Assembly: GCA_050246315.1 (NCBI GenBank)
Contig: JBFWWG010000004.1
Span: 32,001-96,000, forward strand
Reading direction: 5' to 3'
DNA from: Nitrospiraceae bacterium
GTDB taxonomy: Bacteria; Nitrospirota; Nitrospiria; Nitrospirales; Nitrospiraceae
DNA: 64,000 bases
This document shows positions 11,866 to 32,411 of this stretch, piece after piece. Below the pieces are notes generated by a model. It saw only the letters and a list, made by a program, of their open reading frames with translations. It had not been told where the DNA came from and did no database searches. A program made the position numbers and the translations under genes. The first letter of the stretch is position 1. Each line of letters starts with the position of its first letter.

Positions 11866-13899
<2,034 letters not shown>

Positions 13900-14060
13900 T
13901 GTCCTGTCCTCCTGCCATGGGTGAGACGCTCCGTCTGTTCATGCCGCTCCCTATGCCTCCAGCCCATCGACAGAACGTTGCAACAGGAGTCTGCGAAGGG
14001 ACAACCACGGATGGAGCGGGTTGGATCTGCGCGGATAACTACGTGAGAAATCGAGCCATT

Positions 14061-17000
14061 TTATATGGACGGCTTTCGGGGATCAAGCCGAAAGGTGGGG
14101 GGCCGAAGGCCCCTCGGAGCCGTGGATTCTGTAAGGATACGCGCAATATCGCTCACGCGTTTTGCGCAGGAATATGCCCACCAGCCATAGGTCCCGTCTG
14201 CATTCAGCGCCGCGACCCACCGCTCTGCCGCAGCCCGTTTCACCTCTTCGAGCGGGTCGAATCCCTTGGTTTCCAGAATGAGGTGGCATGGAGACTCGGC
14301 GCTCAGTCGAATGATGAAATCCGGCACATAGTCGTGCATCTGGCCGTTGTGCAGGTAGGGAACTGCGAAGCCGAGCCCGGCATTCTTGACGAACGCCAAA
14401 ACCGCGGGATGCCGGTCGATAAAATAGGCCGACGACTGTTCCCACTGTTTGGTGTCCGCCACGACATAGTTGAGATGGCTTTTCACGACTTCCCGCACGT
14501 CGCGACTCGTCCAGAAATCCACCTCAGCCGTCGAGCCCGGACCACGTGTTGCTTCGTAGCGAGGCACTTCCGGCGCTTCCCCTTGAGACGTGTCGGGACG
14601 GATCGCCTCCAACAGCCGTTCAACGACCCAGCCGTAGTACGGGGCAAGAAAGAGATCTTTCTTATCGGCTGGGGGTCGCGCTTCTACCTTCTTATCCAGA
14701 TATAGCTGAATGATGCCGGCGAGTTGCGGAAACAATTTGTGTGTTGGAATCGTGCATTGTTTCTGAGCCACATAGTCCTGCGCCAACGTCTTCGCGAGAT
14801 CGAAGACCAGTTCCTGCATCCGCCGCTTCGCGCGAAACTCTTCAAGGTTAACTTCATCCACTCGACCAGGCCCGCCGAGTGTGAGTTTACCTTTCGTGGT
14901 GACATGAAGACCCTTGACCTCGACCTCTGGCGGGATTCGACCAGGCTCCAACACGAGCGAGGGAACACTTCGCCAATCCACCGACACCTTGTTGCGAATC
15001 GCTTGGGTGTAGCCTTCAACGCGAGGAAATCTGATCTCGAATTCCGATTTCGCCGGGATCGCATGGACATGGTACCGCTTCACGCGAGGCTGCGGCTGCC
15101 CCTGAGGATTCGCCTTGAACGGGATCACTTCAAACGGCACGCCGAACACCTTCGCGACTTCCTCCGTCAGCTTGCCATCGGCGCCGACTTCATAATTGGC
15201 CCTCCGCAATCCTCGCCCGACCACCTGCTCGCAGAGCAGCTGTGACATGAACGGTCTCAGGCCGATGATGTGCGTTACGGTGTTGCAGTCCCAGCCTTCG
15301 GTCAGCATGCCCACGCTGACGATGCAACGGACGTCGCGACCAGGCGGATGGTCCGGACGTGTAAGTTTATCGGCCAATTCCTTGAAGCCTTCCGGATAGA
15401 GAGGCCGGCCGACCCGATCGGTCGGCCAGGCCGTCTTCCCAACCGTATCGAGTGTGAATCGCATCCAGCGGACTTCGTCGTTCTTCGCCTCGCCGGAATC
15501 CGACTCGTGGACCACCTTGGAATCCACTCGGATCGTGTTCTGCCGGCCGCTATTTTTGAACCCTTCGATCTTCACCGGCGGAATCCCGGTCGGCGCCTTG
15601 TCTTCCGCCAGCCACTCGTAGAGCACCTTGGCAATCTGCGTATTCTTGCAGACCAAGATAAAAACAGGCGGCCGCGGATCATCGCGATGCGTGGCCCATT
15701 CTTCGCGATCCTTCTCCCACAGACCGCCCAGCATCGCGATGGGATGATGCGCGTACTTCAAAATGGCCTCGGGTTTGGGGTTCGCCTTCTTGCCCCCACG
15801 CTCAGCCGGAGTGAGTTGAGGAAGAATCCAGTGCCAGATGTTGAAGTAGCCGGGAATGTCACGGCCCGTCGTGTCCCGCACGGCGAGTTGGGGAATTTTC
15901 ACCAGACCGGACTCGATCGCATCGATCAACCCGAAGTCGCTCACGACCCAGGGAAACGGCCGATTGGTATCCTGGCCGACTCGACCGAGAAAGTAGGGCG
16001 TGGCAGACAGATCAAGGCAGAAGTTGATACCACGCAGTTTCTGAATCCGATCCAGGCCGTCGACCCAGACCGTCGCTTCTTTGAAGAAGTCCTCGGCCTC
16101 TTCGTCCTCGCCGAAGAGATCGCCTTCCTCCTCGTCGCTGTCTTCACGCACGATGCGATAGGCATGGTGTGCCTCGTCGTTCATGACGAGAATGTTCTGC
16201 TTCCCTCCCACTTCGCGCCCAAGAATGCGGTTGGCCAGCGCGGTATCGCTTTCCACATAACGCTTTGATTCCACCGTGACCTTCTTCAGCGTGCCGTCTT
16301 TCTCGCGCTCCTCGCCCAGTATGGTCAACAGGCCGGCGGCAACCTGTCGTTCAAGATCTTCGAGCGTGAGGTACCGAGTACCGCGCGCTGTCGTCGTCTT
16401 CGATCTGATCGTAATGGTATCCTTCGCGCGGACTTCGACCCCGGCCCTGGTCACTTTCGCCCCGACCCCGCCGGTTTGCATGGCTTGCGGCTCGAAGACA
16501 TGCCAGTTCGTCACCAGCACTCGTCCTTGCGTCAACGACGGCATCAAGTGAGAGGGAACGAGATCTCGCGTTCTGTACAGACTCGCTTCTCCAGCTTCAG
16601 GGTCCAGTTCACGGAGCCGGTTCTTGATCGTCACGTTGGGACAGACGATCAGCACCACATCGGAGAATCTGGCGTCGCTCCGGTCGTTGACCTTGTTAAG
16701 AATGCTCCAGGCGGCCAGCATCCCCATCACCGTGGTCTTGCCGGAACCGGTCGCCATCTTGCTCGCATACCGCCGAAATCCGGCAAAGCCGTCTTTCCGC
16801 TTGTCTTCGCTGAGTTCCTCTTGAGGAATCTCAATGCCCTGCCGGAAGTCGGTACGGGCCTCGGTCAGAAAAATAATTGTCTCCGCCGCATCGAGCTGGG
16901 CGAAAAAGAGCTGCTGTGCCCGTCCATCCCGCCGCCACCAGTGCAGGAGTTCGAGGGTCGTGCGCGTCACGCCGGGATAGCCCTCCAGCCGCCACTTCCT

Positions 17001-17222
17001 CACCTGCGCGCGAATGCGGTTGACCAGCTTCAGTTCGATCGCCGTGCCGACGACGCGACCGGCTTCGGTGTCCGGCTTGGCTTTCGGATCGCGATAGAAA
17101 TACATCGCCGGACGGCGACCAGGCCGCCGCTCCGGCAGCGCTCCTTCCACGATATGCCAATATTTGGTGGGTTCGTCGAACGGGGAATTGAGAATGGGTT
17201 CCGGGACTTCGTAGCCGCTCAT
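14061..17222 (-). CDS. res: Type III restriction enzyme Res subunit (SF2 helicase plus C-terminal PD-(D/E)XK nuclease; BPTD_3080-like)
   Basis: PILNSPFDEP, MATGSGKT, DEAHH, LSATP, MLTEGWD, EQVVGRGLR, YVPDFII...LETKG. Confidence 0.93.
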   Translation of the reverse strand: MSGYEVPEPILNSPFDEPTKYWHIVEGALPERRPGRRPAMYFYRDPKAKPDTEAGRVVGTAIELKLVNRIRAQVRKWRLEGYPGVTRTTLELLHWWRRDGRAQQLFFAQLDAAETIIFLTEARTDFRQGIEIPQEELSEDKRKDGFAGFRRYASKMATGSGKTTVMGMLAAWSILNKVNDRSDARFSDVVLIVCPNVTIKNRLRELDPEAGEASLYRTRDLVPSHLMPSLTQGRVLVTNWHVFEPQAMQTGGVGAKVTRAGVEVRAKDTITIRSKTTTARGTRYLTLEDLERQVAAGLLTILGEEREKDGTLKKVTVESKRYVESDTALANRILGREVGGKQNILVMNDEAHHAYRIVREDSDEEEGDLFGEDEEAEDFFKEATVWVDGLDRIQKLRGINFCLDLSATPYFLGRVGQDTNRPFPWVVSDFGLIDAIESGLVKIPQLAVRDTTGRDIPGYFNIWHWILPQLTPAERGGKKANPKPEAILKYAHHPIAMLGGLWEKDREEWATHRDDPRPPVFILVCKNTQIAKVLYEWLAEDKAPTGIPPVKIEGFKNSGRQNTIRVDSKVVHESDSGEAKNDEVRWMRFTLDTVGKTAWPTDRVGRPLYPEGFKELADKLTRPDHPPGRDVRCIVSVGMLTEGWDCNTVTHIIGLRPFMSQLLCEQVVGRGLRRANYEVGADGKLTEEVAKVFGVPFEVIPFKANPQGQPQPRVKRYHVHAIPAKSEFEIRFPRVEGYTQAIRNKVSVDWRSVPSLVLEPGRIPPEVEVKGLHVTTKGKLTLGGPGRVDEVNLEEFRAKRRMQELVFDLAKTLAQDYVAQKQCTIPTHKLFPQLAGIIQLYLDKKVEARPPADKKDLFLAPYYGWVVERLLEAIRPDTSQGEAPEVPRYEATRGPGSTAEVDFWTSRDVREVVKSHLNYVVADTKQWEQSSAYFIDRHPAVLAFVKNAGLGFAVPYLHNGQMHDYVPDFIIRLSAESPCHLILETKGFDPLEEVKRAAAERWVAALNADGTYGWWAYSCAKRVSDIARILTESTAPRGLRPPTFRLDPRKPSI

Positions 17223-17246
17223 GGTCAAAAAGAGACGGCCTCTTGC

Positions 17247-17468
17247 TTAGGCAGCATATTTGACCACGCTCAACTCAGCAGCGTCATCCGCCGCATCGAG
17301 AATCTGCTCGACGGTCGCCATGACAGCATCCTCGATGGAATATTCCGTGCAGTTTTCACAGAGCAGGACGGGAAGGTTCTTGATCACGACAATCGACTGA
17401 TCGCTCAGCTTAAACGGCAAGTCCGTCGTCGCCCGGTTCATGGACCCACCGCAGACTCGGCATCTCAT
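17247..17468 (-). CDS. YgiT-type zinc-finger protein (MqsA N-terminal-like putative antitoxin)
   Basis: MRCRVCGG...IKNLPVLLCENCTE; ATGA overlap with the upstream gene. Confidence 0.85.
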   Translation of the reverse strand: MRCRVCGGSMNRATTDLPFKLSDQSIVVIKNLPVLLCENCTEYSIEDAVMATVEQILDAADDAAELSVVKYAA

Positions 17469-17809
17469 AGGTTCTTCCTCCTGGTTCTACAATCCTGTTC
17501 CCACTCGCGAGGACTCGGACGATACACAGTCACGATCCGTACATTGTCTCCCGATACATCGGTCGCAATGTGTATGTGCGCAACCCCTTCGTCCGACCGA
17601 CACAGAACCAAATAGCTCGGCAAATATTTATCATCCGGATACGGCTCGATAATCTCGTAGGTGCCGACCGCTCGCAAAAGCGTCTCGCGGGACAGCGTAC
17701 GTCCCTTCAACCGCATCTGCACATGATAGGTCCAAAAAATCTTTCTCTCACGGACGCACCGTTGAATAAACGCGAGCGGATTGTCTGGAATGATACGCTC
17801 GCTGACCAT
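17465..17809 (-). CDS. DUF4258 family putative toxin (RelE/BrnT-like)
   Basis: IFWTYHVQMRL, IIEPYPDDKYLPSYLVL, HIHIA, IVTVYRPSPREW. Confidence 0.85.
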   Translation of the reverse strand: MVSERIIPDNPLAFIQRCVRERKIFWTYHVQMRLKGRTLSRETLLRAVGTYEIIEPYPDDKYLPSYLVLCRSDEGVAHIHIATDVSGDNVRIVTVYRPSPREWEQDCRTRRKNL

Positions 17810-17835
17810 TTAGAAACCAGGCCTTACTGGGCGCA

Positions 17836-17895
17836 TCATGCCAGTTTCTTCACCACCAGCAATTCGTTGCCCCGGTCGTCGATCACCTTCACGGC
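17836..17895 (-). pseudogene. C-terminal remnant of type III Mod methyltransferase (AVKVIDDRGNELLVVKKLA*)
   Basis: Translated by hand. Resembles the typical IAVKVIDDRGNE C-terminus of this Mod family. An in-frame TAG lies 7 codons upstream (17914-16) and there is no convincing start. Confidence 0.8.
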
Positions 17896-17993
17896 GCTGA
17901 GAGGAGAGGAAGACTATCCTCTCGAAAGTCTCCGGAGTTCAAACTCCAAGCGAGTGTGTTTCCTATTGGTCTCGCAGCTATCTGGCTCCACGA

Positions 17994-18341
17994 TTAGTAT
18001 TCGTCATACTTTCTCGAGTTTCCGTAGGCCTTGTCCACGGGATATTTGGTCTCATTCTTTTCAAGCTTTGACCGGACGGCGGAATCTAAGTCTATACCGA
18101 GATCATGGATTAGATACGAAAGCACGATCGCAACGTCTGCGACCTCATCTTGGATCCGATCCTTCAACTTGCTCGCGATCATGGTTGCAACTTCCTCGTT
18201 GGTCTTCCACTGAAAAACCTCGAGCAATTCCCCCGCTTCTATTGAAAGAGAGATAGCCAGCTCCTTAGGCCTGTGAAACTGTTCCCAGTCTCGCTTCTGC
18301 CTAAACGCAAGAAGCTCTGTGAGCAAGTCGTTGCTGATCAT
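17994..18341 (-). CDS. MazG-like nucleotide pyrophosphohydrolase (dCTP pyrophosphatase-like)
   Basis: RDWEQFHRPKELAISLSIEAGELLEVFQW, EVADV, KLEKNETKYP; GGAG RBS. Confidence 0.92.
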   Translation of the reverse strand: MISNDLLTELLAFRQKRDWEQFHRPKELAISLSIEAGELLEVFQWKTNEEVATMIASKLKDRIQDEVADVAIVLSYLIHDLGIDLDSAVRSKLEKNETKYPVDKAYGNSRKYDEY

Positions 18342-18360
18342 CAGCCTCGTCTCCTTGTGA

Positions 18361-19305
18361 CTAGCCGAGATACACGTTCTGATTGTGCCACTTGAGAAAC
18401 TGGTCTGAAGGTCGATCTCTTGGAGCCGCGGGGATCACGGCCAGTTGTCTGCCGTGCAAGGCATAATAGTCTCGACCGTTCTCATATTCTTCTTTAATTT
18501 TCCGACTAACCTCGACGTGCAGTTGCGGAGTGACAGAGATATAGCCAAGGTCGAACAGCTTGTGAAGATCAGATCTCATCAACAAGCCGTTTACTGTCAG
18601 ATTGGGGCCTGACTTCGAGAATGGCTTGATATGAGCCGCCTCCAGTGCTGGCAGAGTTCGTTCTCCTGTAACCGCACAGCGACGAACATAGGCTTCCGTG
18701 ACTAGAACTCGAAAGGCACCTTGCCCTAACCTTGCTCTGGTCAAAAATTGAGCTCCATACATTGCTTCATCTTCAGCCACCAATGGTGTTGTGTCCATCC
18801 TGACACTCTGCTGCTGAACATGAGTGACCTGAATCCGCTCCTGAATCCTAATCCATACATCTCTCCCGACCTCTTGATCGGTGTCATAAGTCTTACCTTG
18901 GACAATGCTTGACGCCCAATCCGAGGGAGCGGGAATCCAGTCTTTCCTCTCAAAGAAAAACGGATTTCCCAGGATGGTGCAACCAATCACCGGATCGTGG
19001 GTTTTTGATTTACTAGCTCTGAATCTCTCAATCCGTAAACGTAACTCCTCTAGCGACGCTGCCCCATTTTTCTCTCCAAATGCCTCCCAGGCCAACGAAA
19101 GAGGCAGGTTCGAATGCCTGATGAAGAAACCTCCTCCAGCAATGAAATTATAGGGACTGTGGAGTTTGAATAAGAATGGTGAGTCGGTCGGTATCGCTTG
19201 AAATGATCCGAATCCGCTTGGACGCCAGAAATTCACCTCTTCCGGCGATCGTGAGGATAGAAATTCAAACCATTTGTTGTCTGTTACGCCGATCCAAAAC
19301 TTCAT
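18361..19305 (-). CDS. HNH endonuclease with uncharacterised N-terminal domain
   Basis: Start MKFWIGVTD at 19305; RLGQGAFR..V..AY..RCAVTG, LEAAHIKP, NGLLMRSDLHKLFDLG, FLKWH. Confidence 0.9.
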   Translation of the reverse strand: MKFWIGVTDNKWFEFLSSRSPEEVNFWRPSGFGSFQAIPTDSPFLFKLHSPYNFIAGGGFFIRHSNLPLSLAWEAFGEKNGAASLEELRLRIERFRASKSKTHDPVIGCTILGNPFFFERKDWIPAPSDWASSIVQGKTYDTDQEVGRDVWIRIQERIQVTHVQQQSVRMDTTPLVAEDEAMYGAQFLTRARLGQGAFRVLVTEAYVRRCAVTGERTLPALEAAHIKPFSKSGPNLTVNGLLMRSDLHKLFDLGYISVTPQLHVEVSRKIKEEYENGRDYYALHGRQLAVIPAAPRDRPSDQFLKWHNQNVYLG

Positions 19306-19898
19306 GGCTTCAGCACCTGATCCGTGATCGAATGCTGGGGATCGCCGAAGAGGGCGAACATATCCTCTTGCTTGTCGGTCTTGTGCCCGGCCAGCGTTTC
19401 GATGATGGCTTTGGTGGAGAGCCGTTCGTGGATGAACAGCGGCAAGGTCGGGACATCGAACGAGAGCCGTTCGGCCTTGCCTGCCCAATTGAGAAACGGC
19501 TTACTGAGGGCTTTCAGCTTGCGTAACGTCTCGTCCGCTTCGCGGAGAAGTTTGGCTGACTCACCCTCACCCTCGCCCTCTCCCTTGAAGGGAGAGGGGA
19601 CAGGTGGGACACTCTCTCCCGCAGAGGGAGAGGAGGCCATCGAGGCTCGCAGATCGGCAATCTTGGTTTCCAGGCTGGCGATCAGTGCCTCACCCTGCTC
19701 GCGGGCGGGATTCGTGGCGTCCCAATCGAGCGCGGGCGAGAGCGACGAATCATAGCGGTAGGTCTTCGGCGGTTTCTTCTTTTTGAACTGCGCCTGCGTG
19801 CCGACCTCCGGCCGCATGAGGCTCTTGGCGTCGGGGTGCTGATAGGGCGCCGTCGCTTTGTTCTTAACAGCAGGCTTGCGTGGGGAACGTTTCGCCAC
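19302..19898 (-). pseudogene. N-terminal fragment (198 aa) of type III site-specific DNA methyltransferase (Mod)
   Basis: RPEVGTQAQF..KKPPKTYRYDSSLSPALDWD, PFLNWAGKAERLSFDVPTLPLFIHERLS, FGDP. Ends before the catalytic DPPY and FxGxG motifs. Confidence 0.8.
19563..19634 (+). repeat. REP/RPE-like palindromic repeat pair read in frame within the Mod fragment
   Basis: CCCTCACCCTCGCCCTCTCCC-TTGAA-GGGAGAGGG, plus a second hairpin CTCTCCC-GCAGA-GGGAGAG; translates as SPSAGE...PSPFKGEGEGEG. Confidence 0.75.
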
Positions 19899-19916
19899 CG
19901 AATCGCTCCAGCTTAG

Positions 19917-20117
19917 CAGGGTGTTGAAAACGTCCGCCAGCTTTGTTCTCGCATCGCTCAGAGGCTCAACGTACCGAAAAGCGTACGCTTCGCCTCCTCA
20001 CTCGCTGCGGCCGCGCTGGACGGCCTTTTTGAACACCCTGGGTGGTATTCCGACATCATCCGAGATCGCGTTGCATGGTCCTTTTCGAGAGCGCTCACCA
20101 TGTTTTTCAACAGCCTG
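19917..20117. mobile_element. MITE (201 bp) with terminal inverted repeats and TTAG target-site duplication
   Basis: Left end CAGGGTGTTGAAAA, right end TTTTCAACAGCCTG, TTAG at 19913-16 and 20118-21, internal third IR copy at 20026-40; no transposase. Confidence 0.8.
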
Positions 20118-20226
20118 TTAGAGGAAACACGTGTCGGCGGCAAAGTAAAGCAGAACCGGTTCAAAAGGTCCAGCGCTACTGCCGATCCCGGGCTTGCGGA
20201 GTGGGGAACCGGATCGAGAGTCCGGT

Positions 20227-20255
20227 TTGCGCCGATGAAACCGGTTTGTTATAGT
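20227..20255 (+). promoter_or_regulatory. Sigma70-like promoter
   Basis: TTGCGC-N17-TATAGT with extended -10 TG. Confidence 0.5.
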
Positions 20256-20280
20256 CCGCGGATCACGGAGGGAGGACTCG

Positions 20281-20535
20281 ATGGGAATGGCCCCGGAGTA
20301 TATCGTGGTAGAAGGGCAGGAGTTCAGCAAGGCCAAGCTGACCTTGGACAGCCACGTCTATAAGAACTGCACGCTCGACGATTGCGACATCTACTACTGC
20401 GGCGGCGCCTATGAGTTGATCGACACGCGCGTGACCAATTGCCGCCTGATCCTGAATCACCCCGCCAAAGGCATGTACGCGGCTATTCAGATTTTCAAGA
20501 TGAAGTCCCCCGGTTCGACGATCGTCTCCGATTGA
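20281..20535 (+). CDS. Hypothetical 84-aa protein, beta-rich
   Basis: GGAGGA RBS, upstream promoter motif, protein-like sequence. Confidence 0.7.
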   Translation: MGMAPEYIVVEGQEFSKAKLTLDSHVYKNCTLDDCDIYYCGGAYELIDTRVTNCRLILNHPAKGMYAAIQIFKMKSPGSTIVSD

Positions 20536-20586
20536 CCACGCCTGTCCGTCCCTATCTTACCGCTGCTTCAACCACGGCGACCGTGG

Positions 20587-21828
20587 TTATTTGTTGATCG
20601 GGACGTTCTCGGCATATTTGGTGATGGGAACGGCTTCAAACGCAGGGTCTTGCGCTCCCTTCGGGGATTCCGCCTCAATGCGCTGAAGAAATGTGCTCGG
20701 CCCGGCCACAGGGGCGTAGTTGAGCGACAGCTCCACGTCGAAGCTCTTGGTATCTTTCGGGGTCGGGAACTCGAAGGTTTCGACCCGCGTTTCCTCCGGC
20801 TTGAGCACGGTATCTTCCGCGACCTTGACCGCTTCGAAATCGAACACCGTGGGCTGGCCCTTGGCATCCAGGTACTTTCTGCCGTACACCCGCCTGTCGC
20901 TGTGAACCGTCCGGAGGTTCTTGCCCTTGATCGCCAAGTCCAGCGCCACGCTCGCCCAGCCCGGGTGGGTGGTCGGCAGGCTGTGAGGCACCAGGCTGTG
21001 GACCTTGACCGTGACCTTGGTCTTGTCTCCCTGCACCTCGCTCGTCACCTCCAGCTTCGCAGCCTCCTGCCGCAGTTTCCCAACTCGTCCGGGGAAGGTG
21101 TGGTTCGCGACCTTCCGCTTGTTCTCTCCGTTGGCGGATTCGCCGAGTTGCTCCGGCATGTGACAGGTCTGGCATTCCTTGCCGGACTTCACCGCCTTGC
21201 TGGTCTCCCACGATCCCAACAGGTCGTTGCTCGTCCCCAAGTTGCCCGCGGTCGGCACGGTCACGTGGCAATTCAAGCAGAGGGCCGACTTGCGGAACAG
21301 GTCCAGGTCCGCGGATTGGTGAGCCAGGTTCGCAGCCGCGTCCTTATACGGCCCATAGAGCGTCTTGCTGCCGAAATCGTACTTCGGCATCGGGGGATGC
21401 GCCGTGCGATCCACCTCTTTAATCAAGTGGCATTGCGCGCAGGCAACCCCATCGATCGAGGGCTCGCCCGATTGCACCTGCTTGATGAAGGATTCGGCGA
21501 GTTCCGGATACTCCTTGATGTGCGGCGCATGGCAGCGCAGGCAGAGGGCCTTGTCCTTTCCGCCCGAGAAGGTCAGATATTGATCGATGGCGGCACGAAA
21601 CGCCGGCGAATGCAGCGAACGGGACATGGGCGAGGTTTCCCATTCTTCATAGACCCGCTCGTGACACCGCTTGCATTTGGCGGCGAGGGGAAAGGCCTTC
21701 TCCAACGGCAATTTGGCCTTGGCCGCCTCCTCCGCCCGGCTTGATTCCAGCGCCAGGCCGAGGAGCAGGACCACGAGTCCAACCGCTCCGACGATCACGC
21801 CCCGTCTCCACATCGTGTTTGCATTCAC
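20587..21828 (-). CDS. Exported pentaheme cytochrome c (c554/c-552-like)
   Basis: Signal peptide; five CxxCH motifs (CKRCH, CLRCH, CAQCH, CLNCH, CQTCH). Confidence 0.92.
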   Translation of the reverse strand: MNANTMWRRGVIVGAVGLVVLLLGLALESSRAEEAAKAKLPLEKAFPLAAKCKRCHERVYEEWETSPMSRSLHSPAFRAAIDQYLTFSGGKDKALCLRCHAPHIKEYPELAESFIKQVQSGEPSIDGVACAQCHLIKEVDRTAHPPMPKYDFGSKTLYGPYKDAAANLAHQSADLDLFRKSALCLNCHVTVPTAGNLGTSNDLLGSWETSKAVKSGKECQTCHMPEQLGESANGENKRKVANHTFPGRVGKLRQEAAKLEVTSEVQGDKTKVTVKVHSLVPHSLPTTHPGWASVALDLAIKGKNLRTVHSDRRVYGRKYLDAKGQPTVFDFEAVKVAEDTVLKPEETRVETFEFPTPKDTKSFDVELSLNYAPVAGPSTFLQRIEAESPKGAQDPAFEAVPITKYAENVPINK

Positions 21829-31457: not shown

Positions 31458-32411
31458 TTACGCCGTCCCAAACGGCCCCTTCTCCTCCTTTTCCTCTTGC
31501 TTGTCCATAAAGGACTGCGCCCCGACCTCGCTCAAGAGCATGCTCAACTCGTTACCACGATCCTGAGCCCCGCATTCATAGGACTGCCCCTCCGGGGCAT
31601 TGAAGGTGGCGGGACGATAGTCGGTCTCAGAATAGGGTTGCGGACTGACTCCGAGATACAGGGATTCGAGATCCATCCAGGCCCCGCAGATATCGGCAAT
31701 AAACCGGAAGAGGCCCGAGTCTGACTTCTTGGAGAGCATTCGGGAAAAGAGGGGAACCCATCGCCCAATATGATTCTTGACGAACTTCTTTTGCGCATCC
31801 ACCACGATTTGCGTTTTCTCAGGCCCGTCATGGCACAGTGCGTACGATTCCTTGTAGGCGAGAAAATGCATGAACTCGAGCTCGACGCTCAGGTGGTCGA
31901 GACGCTCATGGATATCCTTGGACAGCTCCACTCCGAATGCCTTGTAGAATCCAGCGATGTCCCCCATCACGTGCGATTGGGCAAACACGTGGTCGTTGCC
32001 GAACAACGTCTCGTAAGGAGGACAATCCAGCGTGATCACATTACTAAAGACCCGGCGGTGCTCAGCTTGCAAATCCTCCAATTTCCAATTGGAACATTCT
32101 GCTGCCACCCACCGTTCGACATCGTCGAGGAGTTGACTGATGGTCTGCAACCGTTGGGCGGCCCGCTCTCCACCCGCTCCGGCGAGAGCCTTATCAAGCC
32201 CTTGGATCGCTGCACGCCCGTCCTCGACGAATTCCCCGGACTGGAGATAGTCAAGAAATTCATCATCCTCGGGGAACAACAGACCCCACGAGATCAACAA
32301 ATAGATTTTGCTCCGATTGAGAGCTCGCTCGACTGCAGGAGAATCCTTCGCTGCTGCTGTGGCGGGAACGACCGCGGCGGAACCGCTGGTGGCACTCTGT
32401 TTCCCAGTCAT
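31458..32411 (-). CDS. TorD/DmsD-family molybdoenzyme maturation chaperone
   Basis: CPPYET, DIAGFYKAFG, ERLDHLSVELEFMHFL, FVKNHIGRW. Confidence 0.92.
   Translation of the reverse strand: MTGKQSATSGSAAVVPATAAAKDSPAVERALNRSKIYLLISWGLLFPEDDEFLDYLQSGEFVEDGRAAIQGLDKALAGAGGERAAQRLQTISQLLDDVERWVAAECSNWKLEDLQAEHRRVFSNVITLDCPPYETLFGNDHVFAQSHVMGDIAGFYKAFGVELSKDIHERLDHLSVELEFMHFLAYKESYALCHDGPEKTQIVVDAQKKFVKNHIGRWVPLFSRMLSKKSDSGLFRFIADICGAWMDLESLYLGVSPQPYSETDYRPATFNAPEGQSYECGAQDRGNELSMLLSEVGAQSFMDKQEEKEEKGPFGTA

Follow-up and report, generated by a model that had tools for sequence, protein, structure and literature searches.

A type III-like mod-res restriction-modification (R-M) operon of a Nitrospiraceae bacterium has had its methylase gene, mod, hollowed out, the catalytic core being replaced by two unrelated genes that code for a putative HNH nuclease and a MazG-like pyrophosphatase. 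The operon lies in a stretch of 64,000 nucleotides (nt), hereafter the window (positions 32,001 to 96,000 of contig JBFWWG010000004.1, assembly GCA_050246315.1). In the reading that we favour, with a probability of about 0.6, this hollowed mod allele has spread among Nitrospira, the two-gene cassette is autonomous and the restriction subunit Res, although intact in the window, is inert.

The ORF calls for the window place six co-oriented and tightly spaced genes on the minus strand, spanning positions 14061-19898. The first of them, modN (19302-19898, minus strand), codes for 198 amino acids (aa) from a GTG start to the end DQVLKP* and corresponds to the N-terminal domain of a Nitrospira type III-like Mod. 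Compared with longer proteins, ModN gave 4,007 matches at E ≤ 0.001, the best 120 of which all contain PF01555 and are mostly of around 880-960 aa; the top ones were P0001 (920 aa, 80% identity) and P0002 (916 aa, 77%), the latter named by NCBI as a Nitrospira tepida methyltransferase. At the other end of the cassette, 98 bases past the MazG stop codon, there is a frame without its own start codon (17836-17895, minus strand) that reads AVKVIDDRGNELLVVKKLA*, made up of the last 19 codons of mod (17839-17895) and its stop codon (17836-17838). A first-pass annotation, made from the sequence alone, had proposed that both remnants derive from the two ends of a single Mod, and a tblastn comparison supports this: residues 1-184 of P0002 match positions 19898-19308 and its residues 898-916 match 17895-17839 with 100% identity, and P0001 (920 aa) matches over residues 1-197 (79.7%) and 902-920 (94.7%). 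Mod residues 185-897 gave no significant tblastn match within positions 13001-21000 (best E 0.098), and the PF01555 domain of the intact P0002 (residues 218-538) falls inside this deleted span. The ModN frame ends one codon past the 5′ junction, and its TGA overlaps the ATG of the HNH gene as ATGA; this overlap and the reading frames reported in the first-pass annotation were all found on the minus strand. Also as had been noticed there for an insert of about 1.4 kb, the replaced segment, of 1,409 bases, is richer in AT than its flanks, with a GC content of 0.489 for the HNH gene and 0.480 for the MazG-like gene versus 0.608 for modN and 0.590 for res (0.584 for the whole window).

ModN has no match to Pfam (including PF01555), NCBIfam or PADLOC models. 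The [DNS]PP[YFW] signature of methylase motif IV does not occur in any of the six frames of 17836-19898, and the sole in-frame F.G.G string, where the FxGxG motif for binding of S-adenosylmethionine (SAM) was sought, is an FKGEG from a Gly/Glu low-complexity stretch of ModN; the earlier statement that both DPPY and FxGxG are missing thus holds in substance. Compared with type III Mod proteins, the locus has therefore kept N-terminal (77-80%) and extreme C-terminal (95-100%) homology and lacks the catalytic and SAM-binding motifs. Since residues 186-351 of P0002 align with residues 87-252 of the EcoP15I Mod, ModN corresponds to the N-terminal helical dimerisation arm of Mod. To judge from the sequence, the two remnants are the ends of a single Mod protein whose core and target-recognition part, as had been suggested for the core, have been replaced (residues 185-897) by the HNH and MazG-like genes. 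The rest of the genome contains no full-length mod of this family, but only the 36%-identical Mod of a second system on contig C9; a cognate full-length mod elsewhere that complements Res is what the first-pass annotation had named as contradicting it. Separately, several in-frame "mini-Mods" of 215-324 aa (P0148, P0149, P0177, P0204 and G218:C2:17108-17572) consist of ModN fused to the last ca. 55-130 residues of Mod, with the methylase core deleted; because these exist, the loss of the core with both ends kept must have arisen in other ways too.

An ancestral arrangement is seen in two relatives from the same genus, G070 and G024, in which a query with 12 kb of DNA found an intact mod followed by res between the same flanking genes, the flanks having 90-95% nucleotide identity. 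Their mod genes code for 889 and 916 aa in open frames of 922 and 921 aa, respectively, the G024 Mod being identical to P0002, and their Res proteins are 95.5% (G070) and 87% (G024) identical to that of the window. The HNH protein, in turn, is matched at E ≤ 0.001 by 36 of the 301 genomes that were sampled from the family, that of the window included, and the 20 loci around the best of these matches were taken for neighbourhood analysis. In four of them (L023, L030, L031 and L033, from genera g10 and g19) ModN is directly upstream and has the same end codon, with around 80% nucleotide identity to the window over modN and the HNH and MazG-like genes. In all five alleles so aligned, the ATGA overlap is kept and the match to mod begins again at one and the same position, (I/A)AVKVIDD; over its 57 bases, the ModC remnant is 81-88% identical between the window and the other four, and the non-coding spacer between the MazG stop and this remnant (17896-17993, 98 bases) is poorly conserved, at about 45% identity (ca. 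0.39-0.58). Scanning two public collections with a degenerate 34-base pattern across the 5′ junction yielded three metagenome and five genome contigs, of which three were already known, leaving five new split alleles (L073, L074, L075, L079 and L080). There are thus ten split alleles including that of the window, and, with L030, L074 and L080 being near-identical, about eight lineages. At the protein level, 12 of the best 120 clusters of short ModN-like proteins have DQVLK and a single further residue as their exact end, and roughly six others end in variants of this string, most being 160 aa long. The tallies of HNH-bearing genomes, of the 12-kb query and of the co-occurrence of HNH and Mod include the unpublished genomes G006 and G076, on which no specific claim depends.

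Because both junctions recur in nine other contigs, with a nucleotide identity of about 80%, the split mod is best described, as far as sequence comparison goes, as an old inherited allele that spreads rather than as a private lesion or an assembly artefact. We consider it extremely improbable that the structure is an artefact of assembly, a possibility raised in the first-pass annotation itself, or a private and recent pseudogenisation: nine further contigs, assembled independently, have the same junctions; 14 DNA runs from six studies, some of which may be the source sample, contain 0.98 or more of the 31-mers sampled from positions 17200-20100; and the protein cluster P0122, which comes from another source, has 93% identity to the ModN of the window and the same end. 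The initial view of an event in this genome itself has accordingly to be given up, given that the two junctions recur in other genera. The search for the same order of Mod-N, HNH and MazG genes that it had recommended did find the order, in these nine contigs, with Res broken or deleted there wherever it could be judged.

The allele of the window is a mosaic. The first 50 bases of its ModC remnant are identical to the 3′ end of the intact mod of G070, whereas the other split alleles differ from this remnant at 9-12 of 58 positions, and the 5′ part of its modN is 95% identical to that of G070. Since the ends match the window's own genus while the cassette is only ca. 80% identical to any other copy, this pattern fits the import of a split allele by homologous recombination through the conserved ends of mod. 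The central low-complexity stretch of ModN has a long form in the window, P0001 and P0002, and a short form in G070 and most split alleles.

The protein encoded by the first cassette gene (18361-19305, minus strand, 314 aa) matches Pfam HNH_2 with 46.9 bits (cut-off 21; E 2.5e-12), and residues H225, N239 and H248 are invariant in an 11-sequence alignment. Sequence similarity to VcaM4I (PDB 6yex, E 1.9e-6) is confined to the HNH part. A profile search retrieved 1,052 representative proteins at E ≤ 1e-30, nearly all of about 300-320 aa. A first AlphaFold model, built from 11 sequences, had a predicted local distance difference test score (pLDDT) of 53.5 and Foldseek matches that fell short of E 0.001; it was replaced by a model from a 119-sequence alignment, with a pLDDT of 93.4 and a predicted template-modelling score (pTM) of 0.88. 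With the latter, Foldseek identified VcaM4I, an EVE-HNH modification-dependent nuclease (E 1.6e-9), the Zymomonas ASCH domain ZmASCH (3.7e-4, template-modelling score by target 0.60-0.64) and the SRA-HNH nuclease TagI (6.3e-4) and, with weaker scores, ScoMcrA, EcoKMcrA and EVE, YTH and McrB-N folds. The protein is therefore predicted to combine a C-terminal HNH domain with an N-terminal reader of the PUA superfamily, similar to ASCH or EVE, and the model gives it the architecture of PUA-superfamily-HNH type IV enzymes, making it a candidate type IV endonuclease. Its gene is intact in the window and in L023, between which dN/dS (the ratio of non-synonymous to synonymous substitution rates) is 0.082, and is interrupted by an assembly gap in L033. 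A one-base loss is common to L030, L031, L074 and L080, which have A6 where the in-frame alleles have A7 (HNH codon ca. 79; ca. 19065-19075 in the window). After this shared frameshift the frame remains open, with a dN/dS of 0.155 between L030 and L031, and the A6/A7 difference may act as a switch that can be turned on and off again, instead of being a sign of decay. The frameshift of L075 could be an error, the contig having a coverage of 2 according to its record name.

The second cassette gene (17994-18341, minus strand) codes for an all-alpha nucleoside triphosphate pyrophosphatase of 115 aa, of the dCTP pyrophosphatase 1 (DCTPP1)/RS21-C6 type, matching PF12643 with 71.6 bits (cut-off 27; E 6.6e-20) and, in the PDB, an archaeal-type pyrophosphatase (4qgp, 2.1e-21) and dCTP pyrophosphatase 1/RS21-C6 (6sqw, 4.4e-19). 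Among 13 copies of the cassette, E35, E38, E41 and E66 do not vary and D69 is conserved in at least 90%; these may be the acidic residues that have a role in metal binding in the MazG family. The dN/dS of this gene among split alleles is 0.07-0.185. DCTPP1 prefers modified dCTPs, and on that basis a division of labour with the nuclease can be proposed, in which the pyrophosphatase would destroy the modified deoxynucleotide (dNTP) that matches the modified-DNA target of the nuclease.

The MazG-like gene adjoins the HNH gene in 19 of the 20 Nitrospiraceae loci, the exception being a contig of 1,888 bases that stops at the HNH gene. Fifteen of the 20 have the pair without ModN, in other settings: after hsdR in L027 and L028 and beside it in L038, after a frameshifted hsdM in L039, amid toxin-antitoxin, Fic and PIN genes, and next to DCD-NucS, HNH and HIT genes in L036 and L037. 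We read the cassette as autonomous. The HNH gene that follows the frameshifted hsdM in L039 is decayed and the MazG-like gene is intact; the hsdM itself is immediately preceded (L039:5900-6550) by low-complexity sequence, poly-Lys or poly-Phe in several frames, that may be an assembly oddity. The HsdM of L039 looked truncated by Pfam, which would have pointed to a recurrent hollowing of methylase genes by the cassette, but examination of the frames revealed a full-length, frameshifted hsdM and that idea was rejected. A distant type of cassette, ca. 48% identical and with the order MazG then HNH, occurs in L036:8610-11810 and L037:6825-10350, and downstream of it come genes for a DCD-domain/NucS-like nuclease, another HNH protein and a HIT hydrolase; readers of modified bases and nucleotide hydrolases seem to be clustered there. 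In the available text of the literature searched, no HNH plus MazG-like defence pair and no hollowed mod allele are described. Group 23 of PMC5714182 comprises unannotated His-Me proteins encoded beside MazG genes, which may or may not be the HNH family of the window.

The position of a putative modification-dependent nuclease inside a methylase gene might also reflect incompatibility, if the HNH protein attacked the mark of this Mod and only those acquisitions that destroyed mod were viable. PUA-HNH enzymes are modification-dependent and those of the ScoA3V group are stimulated by N6-methyladenine (6mA), although most of the characterised ones prefer 5-methylcytosine (5mC) or 5-hydroxymethylcytosine (5hmC) (PMC6765204, as far as its available text goes). 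None of seven genomes with a close intact HNH homologue (at least 68% identity) carries an intact Mod of this family with more than 70% identity, but with a background of about 10% carriers only ca. 0.7 would be expected among seven, so that this absence is uninformative. Additionally, G044 has a 47%-identical HNH homologue together with an intact Mod, and the genome of the window retains two other N6_N4 methylase genes, with which a general reader of 6mA or N4-methylcytosine (4mC) would be self-toxic. We thus find this explanation very unlikely.

The last gene of the operon, res (14061-17228, minus strand), codes for a type III-like restriction subunit of 1,055 aa that scores 1039.5 bits against NCBIfam NF046055 (BPTD_3080 family; cut-off 800) over residues 9-1034, has Pfam ResIII matches and contains no stop codon. 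It therefore has the family score and the open frame of a type III-like Res, and is without a cognate Mod for recognition and docking. According to the available part of the EcoP15I structure report (PMC4490356), two Mod subunits dimerise in part through their intertwined N-terminal helices, and the contacts of Res are with the methylase and C-terminal domains of a single Mod. Because the surfaces of Mod that Res and DNA touch in EcoP15I are gone, the Res of the window probably cannot dock or be targeted, and is probably an inert leftover. Among the six lineages in which Res could be judged, it is intact only in the window and broken or deleted in the other five: it has a TGG-to-TGA stop and is on a separate contig in G265; L030/L074 have an internal deletion that leaves ca. 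residues 1-71 and 948-1052; L031 retains an N-terminal stub and L073 only residues 976-1036; and in L079 residues 3-50 are joined directly to a truncated HNH gene. The intactness of Res in the window is best explained by a recent replacement. In G070, the closest relative, the res gene (L061:4416-7574) has a TGG-to-TGA stop at codon 586 (W586) beside an intact mod, which is the opposite way of disabling the same operon.

The first-pass annotation had foreseen two outcomes, an inert Res or a methylase-free composite defence system. The first fits better with the breakage or deletion of Res in five of six lineages, and for the second no positive evidence was obtained. In such a system ModN, the HNH protein, the MazG-like protein, the toxin-antitoxin (TA)-like pair and Res would work together, e.g., with ModN tethering Res to the HNH reader, whereby a modified-base sensor would stand in for Mod in targeting the motor-nuclease Res. 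In the window none of the six genes is broken, and they are co-oriented and closely spaced; the ATGA overlap points to co-expression, purifying selection acts on ModN and the Res of the window lacks signs of relaxed constraint, all of which would be expected of a composite. Nevertheless, Res has been deleted, truncated or stopped in five of the six lineages while ModN and the MazG-like protein stay intact, the intervening TA-like pair varies between alleles, EcoP15I Res docks on the methylase and C-terminal domains and not on the N-terminal one (PMC4490356, in the part available), and the HNH and MazG-like pair occurs in settings without ModN or Res. We therefore regard a composite as very unlikely.

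The TA-like pair is situated between the ModC remnant and res. It comprises a DUF4258 protein (17465-17809, minus strand, 114 aa; PF14076, E 2.8e-15), as the toxin-like half, and an MqsA-like YgiT-type zinc finger protein (17247-17468, minus strand, 73 aa), as the antitoxin-like half, which matches TIGR03831 with 34.1 bits (cut-off 20.2) and Pfam MqsA_antitoxin weakly. Their genes overlap by 4 bases and, from their families, form a putative type II TA system. The same pair follows the remnant in L073, and L023 shows DUF4258 before its contig ends. In the mod-res gap of G070 (L061) there are instead a nucleotidyltransferase and a HEPN gene, in that of G024 (L062) DUF2281 and PIN genes, and in that of L030 DUF4160 and DUF2442 genes. 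Since the pair differs from genome to genome, it is a variable passenger of the operon, not specific to the split allele, and the interchangeable pairs at the same place in relatives speak against the part in a composite system that it had been assigned. The mod-res gap looks like a hot spot for small TA-like pairs.

ModN, which had been taken for a mere remnant of Mod, shows a low dN/dS among split alleles (0.00-0.15), pointing to purifying selection. Over the whole frame the ratio was 0.017-0.15, with 0.017-0.086 among six short-form split alleles (15 pairs, dS 0.40-1.46) and 0.08-0.14 between split alleles and the window, and it was 0.07-0.19 for the ModN region of three intact genes. For the 66 codons of modN that abut the junction, dN/dS was 0.00-0.09, with a mean dN of 0.020 and a mean dS of 0.76 (28 pairs from eight alleles), and there were no amino acid differences between the window and L023 at a dS of 1.09. 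The modN gene is frameshifted in only one (L031) of the eight alleles that have its whole length on the contig. These substitution patterns suggest that ModN is kept as a small protein under purifying selection, and not as debris. It may serve the HNH gene as a translated leader, act as an adaptor in dimeric form or bind full-length Mods. A complex prediction for ModN with the HNH and MazG-like proteins scored 0.00, with a mark of 0.32, and counts neither way, and the ESM Atlas contained no usable match to ModN, whose own model had a pLDDT of 0.47.

It could be argued that ModN has no function of its own, that its low dN/dS is borrowed by crossover from resident intact genes, and that the frame is simply the translated leader of the HNH gene. 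The 95% identity of the 5′ part of modN between the window and the intact mod of G070, the scattering of split ModNs among full-length Mods in a protein tree, and a dS for modN that is 1.2-2 times that of the MazG-like gene in most of the same pairs would all agree with this. However, the 66 junction codons are the least exchangeable part of modN and are nonetheless the ones with no non-synonymous changes between the window and L023 and with the low mean dN given above; modN is frameshifted in one of eight alleles versus five of eight lineages with a broken HNH gene; and three of the four other genomes checked lack an intact paralogue. An intact paralogue able to convert modN was found neither in G265, G294 and G177 nor in the window's own genome, G165 having only a 48%-identical one. 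We consequently judge borrowed constraint to be unlikely. Another possible source of constraint is that the mod locus is a swap site, at which the writing of marks (Mod plus Res) alternates with the attack on marked DNA (PUA-HNH plus MazG-like) and where ModN, as a free fragment, binds and poisons full-length Mods of the same family that arrive by transfer; we consider this quite unlikely. If it were true, the alleles would be exchanged by homologous recombination through the conserved ends of mod, ModN would keep the cell free of marks, protecting the self/non-self discrimination of the type IV-like nuclease, and the very low dN/dS of ModN would reflect selection for a continued fit to Mod.

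Several observations weigh against the reading of a spreading allele with an autonomous cassette and an inert Res. The dN/dS of res, whose calculation the first-pass annotation had advised, was 0.081 against G070 (dS 0.30), showing no relaxed constraint; the non-synonymous and synonymous changes were 18 and 64 on the branch of the window and 23 and 70 on that of G070, with 47 ambiguous sites. The Res of the window may thus still be useful, or the replacement may be too recent to show. The HNH gene is frameshifted or truncated in five of eight lineages, indicating that the nuclease of the cassette is often not maintained at this locus. On plasmids, four records have an HNH homologue that covers at least 80% of the query with 47-49% identity, and the pairing with MazG was not evident in the three that were inspected. 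In two of these three, Pfam detects no MazG-like gene beside the homologue; one copy comes after a type ISP R-M gene, and a pair of adjacent ORFs had no match to MazG. Additionally, the split alleles do not form one clade in the ModN protein tree, whose well-supported branches force at least three changes, although the tree is mostly open (67 of 85 inner branches) and its careful search is unfinished. Since the split ModNs form no single clade, repeated recombination with intact alleles or several origins are possible, and either of them weakens the argument from dN/dS. The terminal branches of split ModNs also look longer than those of full-length genes in the same tree, making both exchange with intact alleles and some relaxed constraint on ModN possible.

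Taken with these reservations, the favoured reading of a hollowed and spreading allele would begin with one ancient illegitimate recombination that put a self-contained two-gene cassette in the place of residues 185-897 of Mod, which comprise the methylase fold together with the target-recognition part and almost the entire C-terminal domain. Afterwards the allele would have reached other Nitrospira lineages, in all likelihood through homologous recombination at the conserved ends of mod and the neighbouring genes, and in the lineage of the window it would have displaced an intact mod at the ancestral site. Translation of the HNH gene is probably coupled to that of modN through the ATGA overlap. 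The nuclease would cut DNA that contains a modified base, and destruction of the matching modified dNTP by the pyrophosphatase would either starve a phage or keep recycled modified nucleotides out of the host DNA. Res, deprived of its docking and recognition surfaces, would persist only because the replacement is recent.

A scan for promoters and terminators found sites that were no more numerous than in shuffled sequence, and contigs from six RNA runs contained 0.25-0.45 of the sampled 31-mers of positions 17200-20100, which is weak evidence of transcription. PADLOC gave no system-level assignment, matching only its generic HNH and REase_III models. Just upstream of modN, at 19911-20121, there is a multi-copy repeat of ca. 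127-210 bases that the 12-kb query also found, with 80-91% identity, in at least 10 further places of the same genome and many times in relatives; at this site it is present in G070 and not in G024. One of its copies (C9:140-266) is directly upstream of the second Mod gene of the genome. This second type III-like system comprises a Mod of 783 aa at the start of its contig (C9:375-2726), 36% identical to P0002; a Res-like gene for 931 aa on contig C27, which scores 267.6 bits against a family cut-off of 800; and a Fic gene that runs off the end of C27, the part of the system on this contig being C27:1-3857. The ends of contigs C9 and C27 may join. Judging from these sequences, cross-complementation of the Res of the window by the second system is unlikely.

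If the favoured reading of the split allele is right, a single event turned a modification-based system into the carrier of a modification-dependent one, and its product persisted and spread across genera. This raises the questions of the purpose of pairing a PUA-HNH protein with a DCTPP1-like one, which may be a nuclease with a "sanitiser" of recycled modified nucleotides, of why a methylase N-terminal fragment of 160-198 aa stays under strong purifying selection after the loss of the enzyme, and of how fast an orphaned Res decays. Should ModN be an inhibitor or an adaptor, the locus would reveal a novel form of interaction between type III and type IV restriction; should it be neither, the locus would still offer a clear natural case of one allele replacing another at a site of defence genes, in a group of nitrifiers that matters for the environment.

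The predicted HNH protein resembles VcaM4I (EVE-HNH), TagI (SRA-HNH) and ScoA3V in its two-domain architecture, its length (314 versus 309 aa) and its HNH_2 motif (available text of PMC7897488 and PMC6765204), and differs from them in that its modelled reader is closest to ASCH folds. As stated in the accessible part of Lutz et al., PUA-HNH ORFs are rarely near methyltransferase ORFs, whereas that of the window sits inside the wreck of a methylase, and a conserved MazG-like partner is not described in the available sections of PMC7897488 and PMC6765204. The MazG-like protein, for its part, is homologous over nearly the whole of its 115 aa to the dCTP pyrophosphatase 1/RS21-C6 group (6sqw, 2a3q, 4qgp; E 2e-21 to 4e-19) but, unlike that group, it comes from a bacterium, stands alone as a protein and has its gene paired with that of a type IV-like nuclease.

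R-M loci are already known to vary by exchange of their specificity regions and to attract other defence genes. PrrC, for instance, sits inside the EcoprrI type I locus. PUA-like sensor families have likewise been found in R-M operons with N6-adenine methylases, and rare variants with MazG-like effectors have been described (bioRxiv 10.64898/2026.01.15.699771, in the text available). The locus of the window is similar to these cases in nesting a second immune module in an R-M operon and, to the sensor families of the preprint, in combining a PUA-like sensor with nucleotide-targeting enzymes. As far as the accessible descriptions go, it differs from them in that their R-M genes are intact and the partners maybe coupled, while here the methylase is destroyed. 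In the mod gene of Haemophilus influenzae, according to the available text of PMC1557822, the 5′ and 3′ parts and res are conserved and the central part is strain-variable and horizontally moved. As there, conserved ends flank an exchangeable middle in the split allele, the ends in the window being own-genus sequence; but the exchange in H. influenzae swaps target-recognition domains and the product is still a methylase, whereas here the core gave way to two unrelated genes, what is left of mod being a separate N-terminal ORF and a stub of 19 codons, and this gene would no longer bring about methylation. The locus is thus a variation on known themes, the exchange of the central part of mod and the nesting of defence genes in R-M loci.

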